From Flavobacteriales bacterium (GTDB lineage: Bacteria > Bacteroidota > Bacteroidia > Flavobacteriales_F > PHOS-HE28): a stretch of 64,000 bases of DNA. The notes under the pieces are model-generated. The model made no database searches. It worked only from the letters and a program-made list of their open reading frames with translations, and was not told the origin of the DNA. Below, in pieces: positions 18,288 through 64,000 of the stretch. Position 1 is the first letter of the stretch. Each line of letters begins with the position of its first letter. Location: assembly GCA_016713875.1 (NCBI GenBank), contig JADJOI010000003.1, positions 437,092 to 501,091 on the forward strand. The letters are read 5' to 3'. The position numbers and the translations under genes were made by a program.

Positions 18288-19236
18288 CGAAATCAGCGGC
18301 AGGCAGCAGCAGCTCGTAGCGCCGGCCTGCGGGGTTGGACAGGCGCGTCTCGCGCAGCCAGGGGTTCAACAGCTTCAGCACCTTGTAGGAGGTGCCCTGC
18401 TCGGACCCGAAGGCGGCCAGGTCGTTCACGGGCCCGTCCACCACGTGGATCCGCACCTTGTAGGGCGCGTACAGGTCCTTGGAGCGGATGTGGAAGCCGT
18501 AGCGGCCGGGGTCGGCCATGATCTCCTTCATCGCAAGGGCGCGGAACACGTAGCGCGAGGTCTCCTCCGGCAGCAGCAGGTCGTAATAGTCCTTGGCGTT
18601 CTGCCGGCCGATCTGTTTGTCGAGCCCACCGACGCCCAGGTTGTACGAGGCCATGGCCATCGCCCAGGAGCCGTATCGCGCATACGCCTCCTTCAGGTAG
18701 CGGGCGGCGGCGCGTGTGCTCTTCACCACGTTGTAGCGCTCATCCACCTCGGTGTTCACCTCCAGGCCGTACCGCGGGGCGGTGTCCTTCATGAACTGCC
18801 AGAACCCCGCAGCGCCCATGGGGCTCACGGCGTTGGTGAAGCCGCTCTCGATGAGGGAGATGTACTTGAGGTCCTCGGGCACACCCTCTTCAAGCAGCAC
18901 CTGTTCGATGAGGGGGAACCAGCGTGCGGCCCGTTTATGGGCCAGGATGGAATTGCTCTGCCAGTAGGTGTTCACCAGCAGCTCGCGGTCCAGCCGTTCG
19001 CGCACATCGAGCTTCTCCAGCGGTACGCGTTCGCCGCACAGCTCCACGGTGTTCGGCAGGGTGAGGGAGAAGATCTTGTAGCTGTCGTTGAAGTGCCGCT
19101 GGTGGTCAAGGTCGTTGTGCTCCTCGATCACCGCGTACGTGAACAGGTTGGCGCCCAGGACACCCGCCAGCAGAAGGGCTCCCGCCCCGGCGATGCGCAG
19201 GGCATGGACGAGCGGTGTGCGGGGTTCAGTGGCCAT
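18259..19236 (-). CDS. Lytic transglycosylase (SLT domain) protein
   Basis: SLT catalytic motif LIESGFTNAVSPMGAAGFWQFM. N-terminal membrane anchor. Start taken at MATEPRT (19236), 5 bp after the upstream gene stop. Confidence 0.8.
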   Translation of the reverse strand: MATEPRTPLVHALRIAGAGALLLAGVLGANLFTYAVIEEHNDLDHQRHFNDSYKIFSLTLPNTVELCGERVPLEKLDVRERLDRELLVNTYWQSNSILAHKRAARWFPLIEQVLLEEGVPEDLKYISLIESGFTNAVSPMGAAGFWQFMKDTAPRYGLEVNTEVDERYNVVKSTRAAARYLKEAYARYGSWAMAMASYNLGVGGLDKQIGRQNAKDYYDLLLPEETSRYVFRALAMKEIMADPGRYGFHIRSKDLYAPYKVRIHVVDGPVNDLAAFGSEQGTSYKVLKLLNPWLRETRLSNPAGRRYELLLPAADFDAAEGAQDQ

Positions 19237-20338
19237 GTTCGGGGGGGGGAGTGGGTCGTGGGCGCCGGGTGGGCAGGTAGAGCAGCAGGAAGACCGCGAC
19301 GGCGTACAGAACGAAGATCGCCGTGTGAAGGTTCCGCCACACGCCCACGAAGCGCAGGACCGCAAAGTTAAGGAACACGCTGAGGGCCCCCAGCGCACCG
19401 AAGGTGAGGGCCACCTGGGCATCGCTCAGGCCCAGGTAGCTCAGGTGGTGGGTGGTGTGGTCACGGCCGCCCACGAACGGGCTTCGCCCACGCCCGATGC
19501 GGTTGATCGTCACGGTGGTGGTGTCCGCGATGGGCAGCAGGAACACCACGAGGGTCATGATCGCCTGCCTCCAGTGCTCGTCCGCACCGGTGACGGGGGA
19601 GGGGGCGTTCCAGAAGCAGCGGATGCCCACGTAGGCGAGGTAGACGCCCAGGAACTGGCTGCCGGTGTCGCCCATGAACATCCGGCTGGGGTTCCAGTTG
19701 TAGAACAGGAATCCGGCCAGCGCGGCGATGGTGCCCACCAGCAGCACCATGTGGACGCCCTCCACCGGGCCGAGCATCAGGTGCACCACGAGCCCGTTCA
19801 GCAGGATGAAGACGGAGACCACCGTGGTGATGGCGTCCATGTTGTCCAGCATGTTGATGGAGTTCATGATGCCGACGACCCACACGATCGTGAGGAGCAT
19901 ATCGGCCCAAGGCGCGTGGAAGAACCGGATGCCATTGCCCGAGGCGACGAGGAGGGCACCGCAGCCCACTTGGGCCAGGAACTTCAGAACGGGGCGTGTG
20001 TTGTAGGCGTCGTCGGCGAGGCCGAGCAGAAAACCGAGCGAGGTGGCGGCGATGAGGCCCAGGAGACCGGGTTGCCAGAGCGGGGCCAGCGCGGGGAAGA
20101 AGACACCGTTCACCGAGAAGGCGCCGAGGAAAACGATGAAGAAGGCGATGCCGCCGAAGGCCGGTTTATGCGTGGCGCTCCAGCGGACCAGGTCCGTGTT
20201 GTGTTCACGCGAGCCCAGCGTTCGGGCGAACCGCATGAACAGGGAGTTGATCAGGAGCGAGAAGAGGACCGCGGCGAAGAAGAGGCCGGAGTAGATGAGG
20301 AAGAGCTGGGCCGGGGTGTACATGGCCGGGCTAGGCAA
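19226..20338 (-). CDS. Undecaprenyl-phosphate sugar-1-phosphate transferase (MraY/WecA family)
   Basis: About 10 TM helices. Conserved DDxxN-like and NSINMLDNMD motifs of the polyprenyl-phosphate N-acetylhexosamine-1-P transferase family. Start could be 20338 or 20323. Confidence 0.8.
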   Translation of the reverse strand: MPSPAMYTPAQLFLIYSGLFFAAVLFSLLINSLFMRFARTLGSREHNTDLVRWSATHKPAFGGIAFFIVFLGAFSVNGVFFPALAPLWQPGLLGLIAATSLGFLLGLADDAYNTRPVLKFLAQVGCGALLVASGNGIRFFHAPWADMLLTIVWVVGIMNSINMLDNMDAITTVVSVFILLNGLVVHLMLGPVEGVHMVLLVGTIAALAGFLFYNWNPSRMFMGDTGSQFLGVYLAYVGIRCFWNAPSPVTGADEHWRQAIMTLVVFLLPIADTTTVTINRIGRGRSPFVGGRDHTTHHLSYLGLSDAQVALTFGALGALSVFLNFAVLRFVGVWRNLHTAIFVLYAVAVFLLLYLPTRRPRPTPPPEHGH

Positions 20339-60337: not shown

Positions 60338-60725
60338 TGTCAATGTGTTGGTGAGCATGCTCATCAACCATGACACCGCAGGGATCAAGTGGTTGTTCAA
60401 CAAGCAAGCCTTCCGGGTGATGGTCTCATCCGGATTGTTGGGTGAGTTGGAAGAAGTCCTGATGCGACCGCAGTTCAGGCGCTACCTCACGTTGGCTGAA
60501 GCCGATCGGGCCGTGGATCGGATAGCGAACCGGTCAAGCCTGGTAGAGACTGCCTTCCAAGTGCGCCCCATCTGCCGCGACCCGAAGGACGACTACTTGC
60601 TCGCGCTGGCCAAGAAGGGCAAAGCCGACTTCCTGATCACCGGCGATGACGATCTACTCGTGCTGAAGAAACACGGCAAGACCCGGATCCTGAAACCTGC
60701 TGCATTCAGGAAGGAGTTCTTGTGA
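60303..60725 (+). CDS. PIN-domain toxin (type II toxin-antitoxin system, VapC-like ribonuclease)
   Basis: VVDVNVLVSML N-terminal acidic motif. Conserved Asp residues (DPKDDYL, ITGDDD) of the PIN fold. 140 aa. Confidence 0.75.
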   Translation: MPARKRVTLVVDVNVLVSMLINHDTAGIKWLFNKQAFRVMVSSGLLGELEEVLMRPQFRRYLTLAEADRAVDRIANRSSLVETAFQVRPICRDPKDDYLLALAKKGKADFLITGDDDLLVLKKHGKTRILKPAAFRKEFL

Positions 60726-60744
60726 GCGCCCATGATCAGCGACC

Positions 60745-61470
60745 AACCCGTGCCTTCGGCAGGCAGGTGCGCGATGAGCTGCTGACCTTCTCGCCTTTGC
60801 GTAGCCGCTTCGGCGGAGCAAGGCCGCAAGGAGCCACGACAAGACGCCCTTCCACAACCTGCGGACGCACTCCACGAGCAGCAGCCCCGGGCGGCGACCC
60901 GGGGGAAGCCGCCGAGCGCGGGGTGCCACGGCCAACCTCGTTCCGGCGGCATCGTCCCGGCGCGTCGGGACGACCCTGCGGGCGAGCGTCCTCGTTCGGC
61001 CATCCGGCTCCCGCTGTGTCGGGATGAAACAGTTGCTCCTCGATCGGAGACTTCGCTCCAGTATCCTCACTCGTCGCGCCCCTGCCTGCGGCAGGCAGGT
61101 TGGCTGGCCGAACGATCACCGCTCGTGCCATCCGTTCGAGGTTGGCCGAGGCACCCTTGGAGCACACCCAATGGGCCAAGGATGCCGACCTGCTGCGCCT
61201 TCGCGTAGCCGCTTCGGCGGAGCAAGGCCCACCCTTGCCGCCGAGCATCGACCCCCGGTCCACGAACCGGGGCTGGCCGAGGAGATGGCCGACATTGCAG
61301 GCCGCAGAACTGTCACGTCGGGCGGAGCCGAGACGTACCTCGCACATGACCTGCACGTGGACCTCGAAACCGCCGCCTGCCTCCGGCAGGTAAATGCGCC
61401 AGAAGCTGGTGACCAACGCCGCCAAGTACCCCGTGCCTCGCCAAGCCGTAGCTTCAGCGAAGGCTGGGAA
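60745..61470. repeat. Non-coding repeat-rich region: dispersed short direct repeats and palindromic cctgcc-N1-3-ggcagg hairpins
   Basis: gcgtagccgcttcggcggagcaaggcc at 60800 and 61203. cggcaggcaggt at 60755 and 61088. Perfect 19-nt palindrome cctgcctgcggcaggcagg at 61081-61099. cctgcctccggcagg at 61376-61390. No protein-like ORF. Confidence 0.6.
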
Positions 61471-61586
61471 AAGGCGAAGGGCGTGGCGACGAAGTGGGAT
61501 CGGTTGTAGGTCTTATCGTTCAAGTGTTGGTAAAAGGCTTTCGTCGTTTGATTAGATAGTTCTATACTTGCACAACACATTGTGCG

Positions 61587-61898
61587 TTGGAAGTACATAT
61601 CGATGACAAGAACCTGCTGAAGTTGTACTCCGGGGAGACTCCCAAGAAGCTGCGCGGATTGCCGCCGCAGGTCGTGGAGAAGTTCTTTGCCGCAGTGCAG
61701 GTCCTCATGGCATCCAACAGCATCACCGACATCTGGAAGTTCCCCAGCTACAATTTCGAGAAGCTCAAGACCAAGGGCATCTGTTCAATGCGACTCTCCG
61801 GCAAGTATCGGTTGGAGATGACCGTGCAGTGGACCAACCCCGAGCAGACCATCGGCATCTTCACCCTTACAGCCATCAGCAACCACTACGGCGACTGA
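61587..61898 (+). CDS. higB: HigB-like toxin (RelE/ParE superfamily, 'plasmid maintenance system killer')
   Basis: 103 aa. Pattern K.L.KLY...P......V.....L.AS.I.D........EKLK.KG..S.R....YRL......N.....I....H is characteristic of the HigB family. Immediately upstream of the HTH-XRE gene. Confidence 0.65.
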   Translation: MEVHIDDKNLLKLYSGETPKKLRGLPPQVVEKFFAAVQVLMASNSITDIWKFPSYNFEKLKTKGICSMRLSGKYRLEMTVQWTNPEQTIGIFTLTAISNHYGD

Positions 61899-61937
61899 CC
61901 AGCCTTCCGCAACCACGCATCCCGAACCCTCCGCACC

Positions 61938-63047
61938 ATGGCCAACCTCACCAACATCCGCCCGGCACAGGTCTTTCCACCTGGGTACTTCATCAAGGAC
62001 CAACTGGAACAGCGCCAATGGAATCAGAACGAACTGGCCGAAGTACTGGGCATTACTCCTCGCCATCTAAGCCAAGTGATGAACGGCGAAGCACCGCTCA
62101 ACTACGACCTGGCCATCCAACTCGGACAAGTCTTCGATACCAGCCCGCAGCTTTGGTCGAACCTCTATCTGAGCTATGCAATGTGGAACGAAGAAGCAGA
62201 AGAGGAAGCCAGTGCTACGGAAGTCAAGGCGGGCATCTACGAGCGCATGCCGATCCGCGACATGGTGAAGAAGGGCTGGCTGAAGGAGCCCAAGAATTTG
62301 AAGGATCTCGGGCAGCAAGTGGCCAAGTTCTGGGGAAAGGATGACGCTGACCTGTCCTTCATAGATACGGAGTACTCGCCCTGCCTGAATAGGAGCACCA
62401 CCTCTAAGGCGAACCAGTACAACACCAGCTATGCGCTGACGTGGTACCGCAAGGCGAGCATGTGCGCGGAGAAACGGGAAGTACCTACCTACAACAAGAA
62501 GAAGCTGGAAAGCCTGTATGACAACCTCTACTCGTACACCGCCAAGACAGCGAGCATCAAAGTCTATCTGGAGAAACTTAACGAGTGTGGTGTCAAGTTC
62601 CTCGTGCTGCCCCACTTGGAGAAGACCTATCTCGATGGCGCAGCCTTCAAGCAAGGGAGCAACCCGGTAGTGGTGTATACGGCCCGTTATAAGCGCATCG
62701 ACAGCTTCTGGTTCACGTTGGCGCATGAGATCGCGCATGTGCTGTTGCATCTCGACAAGCAACGCCCGATCATTCTGGATGATCTGCACGAAGGAGAAGC
62801 GACCGAGATGGAGAAGGAAGCGAACGAGTTAGCTGGGGAGAAGCTCCGCCACGCGGAGATCGCAGCCCGCTTCCGTGATTCAGGACAAGTACACCCGAAG
62901 CGGATCGAGGCCTGCGCGCAGCTCTATGGCGTACATCCATCCATCGTAGCGGGCAAGCTGGCACATGATGGATTGGCTGGGTATCGCGTGGTGCAGCGGT
63001 ATAGTGAGGATGTGCTGGGGCATATCCCAAGAAGCTACTTGAACTAG
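61938..63047 (+). CDS. higA: HigA-like antitoxin: N-terminal XRE-family HTH fused to ImmA/IrrE (M78) zinc metallopeptidase domain
   Basis: HTH (QNELAEVLGITPRHLSQVMNGE). HExxH zinc motif in WFTLAHEIAHVLLH. 369 aa. Confidence 0.8.
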   Translation: MANLTNIRPAQVFPPGYFIKDQLEQRQWNQNELAEVLGITPRHLSQVMNGEAPLNYDLAIQLGQVFDTSPQLWSNLYLSYAMWNEEAEEEASATEVKAGIYERMPIRDMVKKGWLKEPKNLKDLGQQVAKFWGKDDADLSFIDTEYSPCLNRSTTSKANQYNTSYALTWYRKASMCAEKREVPTYNKKKLESLYDNLYSYTAKTASIKVYLEKLNECGVKFLVLPHLEKTYLDGAAFKQGSNPVVVYTARYKRIDSFWFTLAHEIAHVLLHLDKQRPIILDDLHEGEATEMEKEANELAGEKLRHAEIAARFRDSGQVHPKRIEACAQLYGVHPSIVAGKLAHDGLAGYRVVQRYSEDVLGHIPRSYLN

Positions 63048-63049
63048 GA

Positions 63050-63477
63050 AGCCGTCACGGGCATCCTCGATGCCGCGCTGGTTACCGCCCACGCTGAAAG
63101 GCTGGCACGGTGGACCACCGATCACGATGTCTGCCTGCGGAAAGTCGAAGCCGACCTCGAGTTTAACAGCGTAGCACTCGCTGCCCAAGTTGTGGCGGCA
63201 GCTGGCGGCCGCCGAGCCTGCCCCGGCCCCAGAGCCGGGGTTCATCTCGAAGCCGATGGTCTTGTAGCCAGCGTCCGCCGTACGGCGGACCAAGGCCAAG
63301 CCACCGCAGCCATGCCTACGCTGAAGCTTCGGCAGGCAGGCCCGCGAACAGGTCCAGCACCACCCGGCCTTTCTCTTCAGTAAGGCGTTGTCTTGGATAG
63401 GCCTCCTCCTCGGTAGGCGCGCCTGCCTGCCGAAGGCAGGGCACCAACAACTCATTGATCTCCTCGATATATCCCAT
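63050..63477 (-). pseudogene. DNA (cytosine-5)-methyltransferase remnant: frameshifted in motif I and truncated after motif IV
   Basis: Motif I is split between two frames (RVVLDLFAG| in one, |CGGLALV in the other, separated by about 31 nt containing cctgcctgccgaag). Motif IV GGPPCQPFSVGGNQRGIEDARDGF is intact. Similarity ends at about 63050, exactly at the 3' end of the higA gene. Confidence 0.6.
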
Positions 63478-63600
63478 CACACGCTGCCAATCTTTTCTTA
63501 GCCGCCATAGCGCTTTGGCGAAGGCGGCTTGGCGATCGGCGTGGTGACAAAGTAAGCTCCGTTGAGATCCATCAACGTTGAGCACCTTTCTTTGAGGAAC

Positions 63601-64000
63601 ATGAAGTTCTGGGCCGGCGTCACCGACAACGATTGGTACACCTTCCTCTCCGCACGCGGGTTGGATGAGGTGAACTTCTGGCGGCCATCGCCGGGGCCTT
63701 ACTTCACGGGCTTGCCAGCGGGAACGCCGTTCCTGTTCAAGTTGAAGGCTCCGAACAACCACATCGCGGGTGGCGGCTTCTTCGTGCAGTACTCATCGCT
63801 TCCGTTGGAAATGGCGTGGGATGCGTTCGGGGAGAAGAACGGTATGCCCACGTTCCGCGACTTCGATCGGAAGATCCGTGATTACCGGAAGCTGCCCAAG
63901 GGACCATTGGAGATGGGTTGCAATGTGCTGGTGCAGCCGTTCTTCTTTCCGAGGGAACGGTGGATCGAATTGCCGACGTGGCCCAAGGCGGTGGTGCAGG
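63601..64000 (+). CDS. Partial ORF (5' part; runs off the window), hypothetical, possibly restriction-associated
   Basis: ATG at 63601. Translation MKFWAGVTDNDWYTFLSARGLDEVNFWRPSPGPYF... stays open to the window end. Divergent from the methyltransferase remnant. Confidence 0.4.
   Translation, partial: MKFWAGVTDNDWYTFLSARGLDEVNFWRPSPGPYFTGLPAGTPFLFKLKAPNNHIAGGGFFVQYSSLPLEMAWDAFGEKNGMPTFRDFDRKIRDYRKLPKGPLEMGCNVLVQPFFFPRERWIELPTWPKAVVQ

Follow-up and report, generated by a model that had tools for sequence, protein, structure and literature searches.

The window analysed here is a 64,000-nt stretch of DNA from a Flavobacteriales bacterium, and near its right-hand end, at 63048-63477 on the minus strand, lies the dead 5' third of a type II-like C5 cytosine (m5C) DNA methyltransferase gene from which an active enzyme is impossible. 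The remnant starts with the ATG at 63477-63475, retains motifs I-IV only and holds, apart from inserts, about 106 of the approximately 320 native codons, which is about 30% of the gene. Its motif I is split by a small insert and the gene is truncated where the higA-like gene of a toxin-antitoxin (TA) module ends, and of this anatomy we are highly confident. Considered as a whole, the locus is probably best explained as a dead restriction-modification (R-M) pair that was colonised by miniature elements resembling repetitive extragenic palindromic (REP) sequences.

Identity and extent of the methylase remnant

When the minus strand was read from 63477, frame A gave MGYIEEINELLVPCLRQAGAPTEEEAYPRQRLTEEKGRVVLDLFAGLPAEASA and ended (...DLFAGLPAEASA) at a premature TAG at 63316-63318, which lies inside a 31-nt insert at 63309-63339, and frame B gave ...HGCGGLALVRRTADAGYKTIGFEMN...IVIGGPPCQPFSVGGNQRGIEDARDGF, also written ...HGCGGLALVRRTADAGYKTIGFEMNPGSGAGAGSAAASCRHNLGSECYAVKLEVGFDFPQADIVIGGPPCQPFSVGGNQRGIEDARDGF. 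The original prediction had taken this to be an m5C methyltransferase pseudogene in which the joined frames restore motif I (DLFAG-CGG) and motif IV (PCQ). Both statements were confirmed when the halves were joined across the 31-nt gap, as they then matched PF00145 at profile positions 3-95 of 324 with an E-value of 8.8e-13, while frame B alone matched only at profile positions 53-95. Motif I, the FxGxG loop that binds S-adenosylmethionine (SAM), is whole only after the 31-nt insert is removed and it is uninterrupted in two related loci, L001 and L003, and motif IV with the catalytic cysteine is read in frame B as GGPPCQPFS. The insert-free version of the protein, P0004 from L001, aligns to residues 4-87 of 324 of M.HaeIII and to residues 15-98 of 327 of M.HhaI. 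Motifs I and IV are therefore what the remnant has in common with these PF00145 enzymes, from which it differs in its split motif I and in the loss of motifs VI (ENV), VIII (QxRxR), IX and X (GNAVP) and of the target-recognition domain. The absence of motifs VI-X and of the target-recognition domain had been predicted as well and agrees with the end of the profile match at 95/324. Two relatives, P0298 (317 aa) and P0315 (344 aa), span the whole Pfam profile and carry ENV, QxRxR, QSFP and GNAVPP. When longer relatives were used as tblastn queries, the only methylase homology past residue ~105 in the window and the next 9 kb was that of an intact paralogue that is unrelated, and a 3' methylase remnant was found neither on the far side of the TA module nor in the next 9 kb.

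At the junction (63045-63050) the last methylase codon, TTC at 63050-63048, is followed without any spacer by the complement of the higA-like gene's stop codon (63047-63045), just as the truncation had been predicted to coincide with the end of that gene. What finds no support is that the TA cassette disrupted the gene by a simple insertion. Because the 3' two-thirds of the methylase is absent beyond the cassette, the TA module replaced or deleted the 3' part of the gene and was not simply inserted into it.

Full-length relatives of 317-354 aa share 45-50% identity with the reconstituted fragment. An alignment with an intact orthologue had been proposed to define the breakpoints and this was achieved in part: L001, L002 and L003 define the insertions, but no close intact orthologue was found, the best full-length-sized relatives being 49-64% identical over the matched stretch. 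When metagenomes were scanned with a conserved 41-nt methylase pattern, the sole return was a contig identical to the window and no intact close orthologue appeared. The homologue searches listed short proteins only (up to ~256 aa), so the apparent excess of truncated relatives is partly an artefact and was not used as evidence. In three methylase relatives on contigs of 44-93 kb (P0008, P0049 and P0045) a frameshift near the ENV motif was seen by eye (IQISGIL corresponds to YSNKWYF one base off), and this suggests that this methylase family is frequently inactivated.

The sequence itself is well supported. Over the covered part of 60700-64000 it was matched by eight loci at 99.7-100% identity with zero gaps; these come from NCBI metagenome-assembled genomes (MAGs), ENA contigs and Logan assemblies, and six of them (L006-L011) cover the whole of this part and two (L012 and L013) cover it from 61453. 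A CXWK contig (L140) is 100% identical to the window, another locus (L015) has zero differences across the methylase fragment, and in all, the same indel-free sequence is present in at least nine independent assemblies. That the frame switch and the truncation are sequencing or assembly errors in a gene that is really intact could be argued from the fact that several of the source MAGs were assembled from long reads and are thus liable to small indels, and that gene calls vary among near-identical MAGs nearby. However, a 31-nt insert is no homopolymer slip, the same sequence is gap-free in the NCBI MAGs, in ENA short-read contigs (k127, NODE) and in the Logan and CXWK assemblies, and the junction is also found in L001. 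An assembly error is thereby ruled out, and the chance that the gene is intact is negligible.

Small insertions within the remnant

When the window was compared to L001, a wastewater contig that has the same higA/methylase junction and none of the small inserts, six small insertions were found (33, 18, 39, 31, +6 and 21 nt), and L002, from another Flavobacteriales MAG, has one more of 36 nt. The original prediction of a single repeat insertion was thus right about the insert in motif I, which is real, and wrong about the number, since there are six in the window and one more in L002, mostly in frame. At least four of the six are hairpin-forming units, and they belong to families numbered here F1, F4, F5 and F6.

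The 31-nt insert at 63309-63339 (minus strand) separates DLFAG from CGG, is flanked by GGC on both sides, and is absent from L001, L002 and L003; it is the only one of the coding insertions that breaks the frame. It is an F1-type hairpin unit (CCTGCCTGCCGAAG...AGGCATGG) that encloses an F3-like piece (GCTTCAGCGTAGGC). It had been predicted that this frameshifting insert carries a local hairpin motif, and indeed the 14-mer CCTGCCTGCCGAAG, at 63327-63340 on the minus strand, is repeated exactly at 60754-60767 and in inverted form at 63422-63435. With up to 2 mismatches allowed, 7 matches to this 14-mer were found compared to 1.28 expected, and 0 of 100 shuffles reached 7. The insert also has a 20-nt inverted match, 90% complementary, to 61445-61464. 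By itself it folds weakly (fold z -0.69), and of the terminal inverted repeats and target-site duplication of a miniature inverted-repeat transposable element (MITE) it has no terminal inverted repeats and an ambiguous 3-nt GGC repeat.

The other coding insertions, all on the minus strand unless palindromic, are in frame. The 18-nt insert at 63415-63432 (CLRQAG) belongs to the F1 family, is shared by the window and L002 but not by L001 and L003, and has a fold z of -3.43; its hairpin, CCTGCC-TGCCGAA-GGCAGG, spans 63422-63440, and a 19-nt inverted repeat, 95% complementary, links this region to 63327-63345. The 39-nt insert at 63363-63401 is confined to the window lineage and forms a weak hairpin (fold z -1.42); its 3' part resembles, by eye, a diverged copy of the adjacent 18 nt on its left, and no match to it was found among 120 other Bacteroidota loci. 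At 63273-63290 there is a perfect 18-nt palindrome, GTCCGCCGTACGGCGGAC (F5, fold z -2.93), which takes the place of 11 native nt (GCTTCGAGGCC); this event is an 11-to-17-nt replacement with a net gain of 6 nt that changes GFEA to VRRTAD in frame, and the same palindrome occurs in a Bacteroidetes MAG of 38% GC (L057). The 21-nt insert at 63219-63239 (PGSGAGA), an F6 unit (CCCCGG-N6-CCGGGG), also occurs in L002 but not in L001 or L003, and has a fold z of -3.63; its hairpin spans 63221-63240 and is one of five F6 hairpins within 13 kb. The sixth, a 33-nt insert (F4) at 63495-63527 on the minus strand, lies in the 5' untranslated region (UTR), has a CCGCC/GGCGG stem around the quasi-palindrome GCCAAAGCGCTATGGC and is absent from L001, L002 and L003. 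Measured against shuffled sequence, the folds of F1, F5 and F6 are much more stable (z -2.9 to -3.6), which is not true of the 31-nt and 39-nt inserts.

Five of the six coding events, including the one of 36 nt in L002, keep the frame (18, 39, +6, 21 and 36 nt, the exception being that of 31 nt), for which the binomial P(≥5/6) is about 0.018 with n small. In the MazG-like pseudogenes described below the inserts are of 20, 34 and 35 nt. This in-frame bias suggests that most of the inserts entered while the reading frame still mattered.

Related loci and the history of the remnant

The window and L001/L014 are 100% identical over 61356-63187, diverge from 63188 and have no homology beyond ~63560, which marks a recombination breakpoint within the methylase remnant. 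The gene that flanks the remnant upstream differs between strains. L002 has two inserts in common with the window besides its own 36-nt insert, and its methylase is cut 5 codons earlier, before a different module of the RelE type. L003, at ~74% DNA identity, has no small inserts, and its methylase runs 11 codons further, up to a different HNH_2 gene in convergent orientation. In the lineages of L003, L002 and the window the gene was truncated in separate recent events.

When the ratio of nonsynonymous to synonymous substitution rates (dN/dS) was calculated, it was 0.05 for L001 vs L003 (dS 1.23), 0.23 for L001 vs L002 and 0.34 for L001 vs the window. The value of 0.05 indicates that the methylase was under purifying selection for most of its history, and together with the five in-frame events among six coding insertions it suggests that the methylase was functional until recently and that the R-M pair decayed afterwards. 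Whether the remnant is functional even now, as a short SAM-binding protein or through translational bypass of the 31-nt insert between the GGC codons, has to be considered. Such bypass is known from T4 gene 60 and from the yeast mitochondrial 'byps'. A hop from GGC to GGC would, by eye, restore DLFAG-CGG, five of the six coding inserts keep the frame, and N-terminal fragments that end near the same point are found in L002, L003 and L136. However, the product of a read-through would end at motif IV and then run antisense into higA, and no sequence for motifs VI-X or the target-recognition domain lies in the vicinity. Moreover, the stop codon is 7 codons past the putative take-off site instead of adjacent to it, which is not the arrangement of a bypass, dN/dS rises towards the present, and the partner HNH gene is broken. 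A functional remnant is thus extremely improbable.

The methylase fragment in L136, which comes from a distant lineage and is 54% identical, also ends directly after DARDGF (L136 6001-8914) and is followed by a 93-aa open reading frame (ORF), a 433-aa m5C methylase and a 328-aa HNH_2 gene. This shared end point is a coincidence worth noting and is not evidence of a specific site.

In the original prediction the small repeat was inserted first and the TA cassette came second. This order finds no support, since L001 has the junction without the inserts, L002 has two of the inserts with a different truncation, and the variants are mosaic. In its substitutions the window is nearer to L002 upstream of the 18-nt insert and beside the 21-nt insert, and nearer to L001 in the middle. 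The history of these variants has been scrambled by recombination among them.

Hairpin units in the MazG-like pseudogenes

The stretch at 60.7-61.4 kb had been described as a repeat-rich spacer that shares the hairpin motif. It does carry the same motif, but it is not a spacer; it is itself a MazG-like pseudogene (copy A, 60732-61509, plus strand) whose translation starts MISDQLRDELL.F.KERDWEQFHN... and ends ...KLVTNAAKYPV...EKAKG. It is riddled with units of F1 (60748-60767 and 61081-61099), F2 (60791-60825 and 61195-61229), F6 (60885-60904 and 61253-61272) and F3 (61445-61464). A second copy (copy B) lies beyond the HNH gene at 12953-13423 of L006, one of the contigs that match the window, and is 96% identical to copy A over the last 364 nt. 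When the protein of copy B was spliced by hand it matched PF12643 (MazG-like) with an E-value of 4.7e-6, which is just above threshold and is supporting but not decisive. We considered that copies A and B might be the ends of a segmental duplication around a cassette, but this was ruled out as the homology runs from just before the ATG to the stop. Since the homology is bounded by the start and stop codons, the two are paralogous gene copies. Gene callers read spurious ORFs rich in Arg, Ala and Gly across both of these pseudogenes.

Copy B lacks a 20-nt F1 unit (60748-60767) and a 34-nt F2 unit (60791-60825) that copy A carries, along with a cluster of ~250 nt with more hairpins, and the F2 unit at 61195-61229 is missing from L015, which is otherwise collinear. 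This presence and absence of F1 and F2 between very similar copies is as expected of mobile or copied units. At ~120-150 of L015, which corresponds to 61164-61177 of the window, an F5-like hairpin (TCCGCCGTAAGGCGGA) stands in place of the native MazG-like codons (..EWAK..).

F2 and its companions across Bacteroidota

F2 reads GC-GTAG-CCGC-TTCG-GCGG-AGC. When genome contigs were scanned with the exact 22-mer TAGCCGCTTCGGCGGAGCAAGG, it was found in more than 120 stretches from at least 55 assemblies among the matches listed, with up to 7 or more stretches per assembly. The assemblies listed are of Bacteroidales, Flavobacteriales, Cyclobacteriaceae, Chitinophagaceae, Saprospiraceae, Rikenellaceae and others, along with three contigs that bear non-Bacteroidota labels, and the GC content around the copies ranges from 35% to 70%. 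In the 116 copies that have unique flanks, 9 of the 11 positions immediately to the left of TAGCCGCTTCGGCGGAGCAAGG, which were outside the query, were at least 92% conserved, and the conserved core of F2 is 33 nt, (T/G)CGCCTT(C/T)GCG-TAGCCGCTTCGGCGGAGCAAGG. An outer stem of at least 6 bp was formed by the copy's own flanks in 42% of F2 copies compared to 14% when mismatched flanks were used as controls. Stems of poly-C/poly-G or CCTGCCTGC/GCAGGCAGG often enclose F2; some of its outer stems are the F1 palindrome CCTGCCTGC...GCAGGCAGG, and other genomes have F1 in empty form as well as with F2 inside it. Units of F3, F4 and F5 also occur in unrelated loci that bear F2, with F4-like units beside F2 in L053 and L112. 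In low-GC loci, 85 of 88 F2 copies lie outside long open frames. In a 6.2-Mb Bacteroidales MAG (L021 2966-4797) F2 lies inside a longer repeat that is present in at least 7 places, and near one of these copies, at ~0.7 kb, there are an integrase fragment and a transposase of the IS91 type, an association that is not recurrent.

F2 was absent from 2.9 million IMG/VR viral contigs, where F5 was found in 1 contig, and gave no megablast match in PLSDB plasmids. A search of Rfam at permissive thresholds with the window region and six F2-bearing loci gave nothing relevant, and the element sequences were not found in searchable full text, nor did keyword searches and the supplements of PMC3733652 and PMC6006769 yield a description of F2. 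These hairpin families are spread across Bacteroidota, and no description of them was found in Rfam or the searchable literature.

The strong conservation of the 33-nt core across orders at 35% to 70% GC, the mostly extragenic position of F2 and its loop of the C(UUCG)G type, which is the classic stable RNA tetraloop, could mean that F2 and its companions are functional elements of the host. They would then be protein-binding or chromosome-organising sites, or RNA-stabilising or terminator hairpins, and their presence in pseudogenes would be incidental. A role of F2 as a sense-strand 3'-UTR RNA element is unsupported as there is no orientation bias: its orientation is random with respect to the flanking genes, and divergent and convergent gene pairs surround it equally often. 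This, together with the lack of an Rfam match and the finding of copies within dead genes whose presence varies between near-identical sequences, makes a host function quite improbable.

How the units may move

The most economical explanation, which we put forward tentatively and which falls a little short of probable, takes the hairpin units for miniature mobile elements of a REP-like kind, which would move as single-stranded DNA hairpins. Their mover would most plausibly be an HUH tyrosine transposase of the RAYT (REP-associated tyrosine transposase)/TnpA(REP) type supplied in trans. The units would land in or beside existing hairpins and persist where selection is relaxed, and since some of the events are of the replacement type, repair-templated copying may contribute as well.

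A REP family is as a rule restricted to one species or genus. It has been shown that a GTAG beside a stem is the REP signature recognised by RAYT/TnpA(REP), and intragenic and nested REPs have been documented (Di Nocera et al. 2013, PMC3733652). Bacteroidetes were not among the groups for which that survey reported GTAG REPs, and two TnpA(REP) subclasses, 2.4 and 2.6, are known from Bacteroidetes (Quentin et al. 2018, PMC6006769). The units described here resemble GTAG REPs in being imperfect palindromes of 18-35 nt that are mostly extragenic, in some cases intragenic and in frame, and in some cases nested. In F2 a GTAG lies immediately 5' of the stem-loop, but inside a longer hairpin. In size and shape the units agree with REPs, which are imperfect palindromes of 20-40 nt, hairpin folds being seen for F1, F2, F5 and F6. 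A GTAG is also part of the F3 copy at 61445 (GCC-GTAG-CTTC-AGC-GAAG), and F1, F5 and F6 are without one. The units differ from GTAG REPs in that the 33-nt core of F2 recurs across several orders, in that the local copy number looks low, and in that there is no RAYT near any copy examined. Rickettsia palindromic elements (cited in PMC3733652) are, like the units here, tiny and palindromic, and they likewise insert in frame into protein-coding genes and nest. They differ in being ~100-150 nt long compared to 18-35 nt and in belonging to another phylum, and the units here lie in already decaying genes. Small dispersed repeats of cyanobacteria, said to have been described by Elhai et al. in 2008, are reportedly also tiny, palindromic, nested and in frame within genes.

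Several observations weigh against REP-like mobility. Six-frame translations of the window and 135 loci contained no ORF with an HUH...Y motif and no RAYT-like gene, and when the ORFs around 120 copies of F2 were clustered all-vs-all no gene recurred beside it, the neighbours being unrelated housekeeping genes. The GTAG of F2 is internal to a longer hairpin and not terminal, and the stem that adjoins it is just 4 bp. The F5 unit at 63273-63290 and the F5-like unit in L015 replace native sequence, and the 39-nt insert is not convincing either as a hairpin or as a family member. In 73 kb of this genome the units are confined to the pseudogenes of the island, with none in other intergenic regions, a pattern not typical of a REP of high copy number, and F2 has 3 copies. 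The in-frame statistic is based on just six events. Finally, the patterns of presence and absence conflict with the substitution distances, and recombination rather than transposition could explain some of the differences.

Some of the same observations can be explained if the inserts are patches that were copied in during repair or recombination, by short-tract gene conversion, template switching or filler synthesis, with nearby hairpin-rich DNA, such as the MazG-like pseudogenes, or homologous alleles in the population as donors. In keeping with this, all the units of the window are found within a single 5-kb stretch and none in its other 61 kb, native bases were replaced in two of the events, the locus is mosaic between strains, the F2 target at 60791-60825 (CCTTC^CGCAAGG) shares, by eye, short matches with the ends of the element, and no transposase was found in the window, in the 135 loci or as a recurrent neighbour of F2. 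However, a purely local origin cannot explain why units of F1-F5 occur in unrelated Bacteroidota of very different GC content beside unrelated genes, and the 33-nt core of F2 with its variable flanks behaves as a discrete element. Patch copying as the full explanation is hence unlikely. We also consider, as a less probable form of mobility than the REP-like one though not a far-fetched one, an undescribed, phylum-wide set of nested mini-elements (the 33-nt core, which is conserved from Bacteroidales of 35% GC to Flavobacteriales of 65-70% GC, with F1 and F3-F6) that would target the tips of hairpins and would also enter live genes in multiples of three. Its mover would not be a species-specific REP-RAYT pairing and might be, for example, a conserved host enzyme acting on single-stranded DNA, or templated copying.

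The neighbouring TA module and HNH gene

The remnant lies in a defence island. The GC content of the window is ~65% and falls to 58-60% at this end, and exact matches to proteins of the window were found in 'Flavobacteriales bacterium' MAGs from activated sludge. Between copy A and the remnant are two intact genes on the plus strand. The first, at 61587-61898, encodes a HigB-like toxin of 103 aa that matches PF05015 with an E-value of 1.2e-6 (29.3 bits compared to a cut-off of 27). The second, at 61938-63047, is convergent with the methylase remnant and encodes a HigA/ImmA-like protein of 369 aa with HTH_3 (helix-turn-helix) and Peptidase_M78 domains. It matches PF01381 with an E-value of 2.2e-10, has PF06114 as an additional domain, scores against PD-Lambda-2_B in PADLOC with an E-value of 4.9e-49, and is found exactly in NCBI Flavobacteriales MAGs. 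The pair at 61587-63047 has the HigBA order of a toxin of the HigB/RelE fold followed by an HTH antitoxin. It is like HigBA and PD-Lambda-2 in having the HigB-like toxin (PF05015) before an HTH_3 protein, and differs in that the antitoxin-like protein is 369 aa long with the added M78 peptidase domain. Judging from these profile matches, the 'HigBA' pair may be part of a phage-defence system instead of a plain TA module.

On the other side of the remnant the 5' part of a divergent HNH_2 restriction-endonuclease-like gene occupies 63601-64000 on the plus strand and runs off the window; in PADLOC it was called HNH / 'Type II restriction enzyme'. About 40-200 nt past the window end, at 12103-12266 of L006, this gene is frameshifted by a MITE-like insert of 164 nt, whose terminal inverted repeats are imperfect and 38 nt long. 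Its relatives of ~250-290 aa read ...TETT..AWLWNEVQ... unbroken, and the insert sits between those residues. With the HNH gene broken as well as the methylase, both halves of this divergent methylase/nuclease pair are dead. The HNH genes that lie beside the methylase fragments of L002 and L003 were considered as possible counterparts of the window's HNH gene, and this was ruled out as they share 32% identity over the HNH_2 domain.

The second MazG-like pseudogene lies past the HNH gene, together with a pVip-like radical-SAM gene, a TIR (Toll/interleukin-1 receptor) effector, a 325-aa m5C methyltransferase and a ParB_N/PD-Lambda-5_A-like gene. The 325-aa methyltransferase, which is intact and beyond the window, is DruM/MTase_II-like and 31% identical to the dead methylase. 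The island from the pVip-like to the ParB_N/PD-Lambda-5_A-like gene occupies 13526-18690 of L006, and a PIN_10/DUF433 pair follows at 18961-19550.

Implications

That there is a methylase pseudogene here is in itself routine, as R-M genes in defence islands turn over fast. What the locus offers is a compact record of how an R-M pair died, in which both partners were hit by tiny non-autonomous insertions, the methylase was truncated by an incoming TA/defence module, and the variants were shuffled between strains by recombination. The hairpin units also cause gene-calling artefacts across pseudogenes. If the units are mobile, they would extend REP-like biology to a phylum for which no GTAG-type REPs were catalogued in the survey of PMC3733652, and they would provide a sequence-conserved substrate with which the enzyme that moves them could be found.

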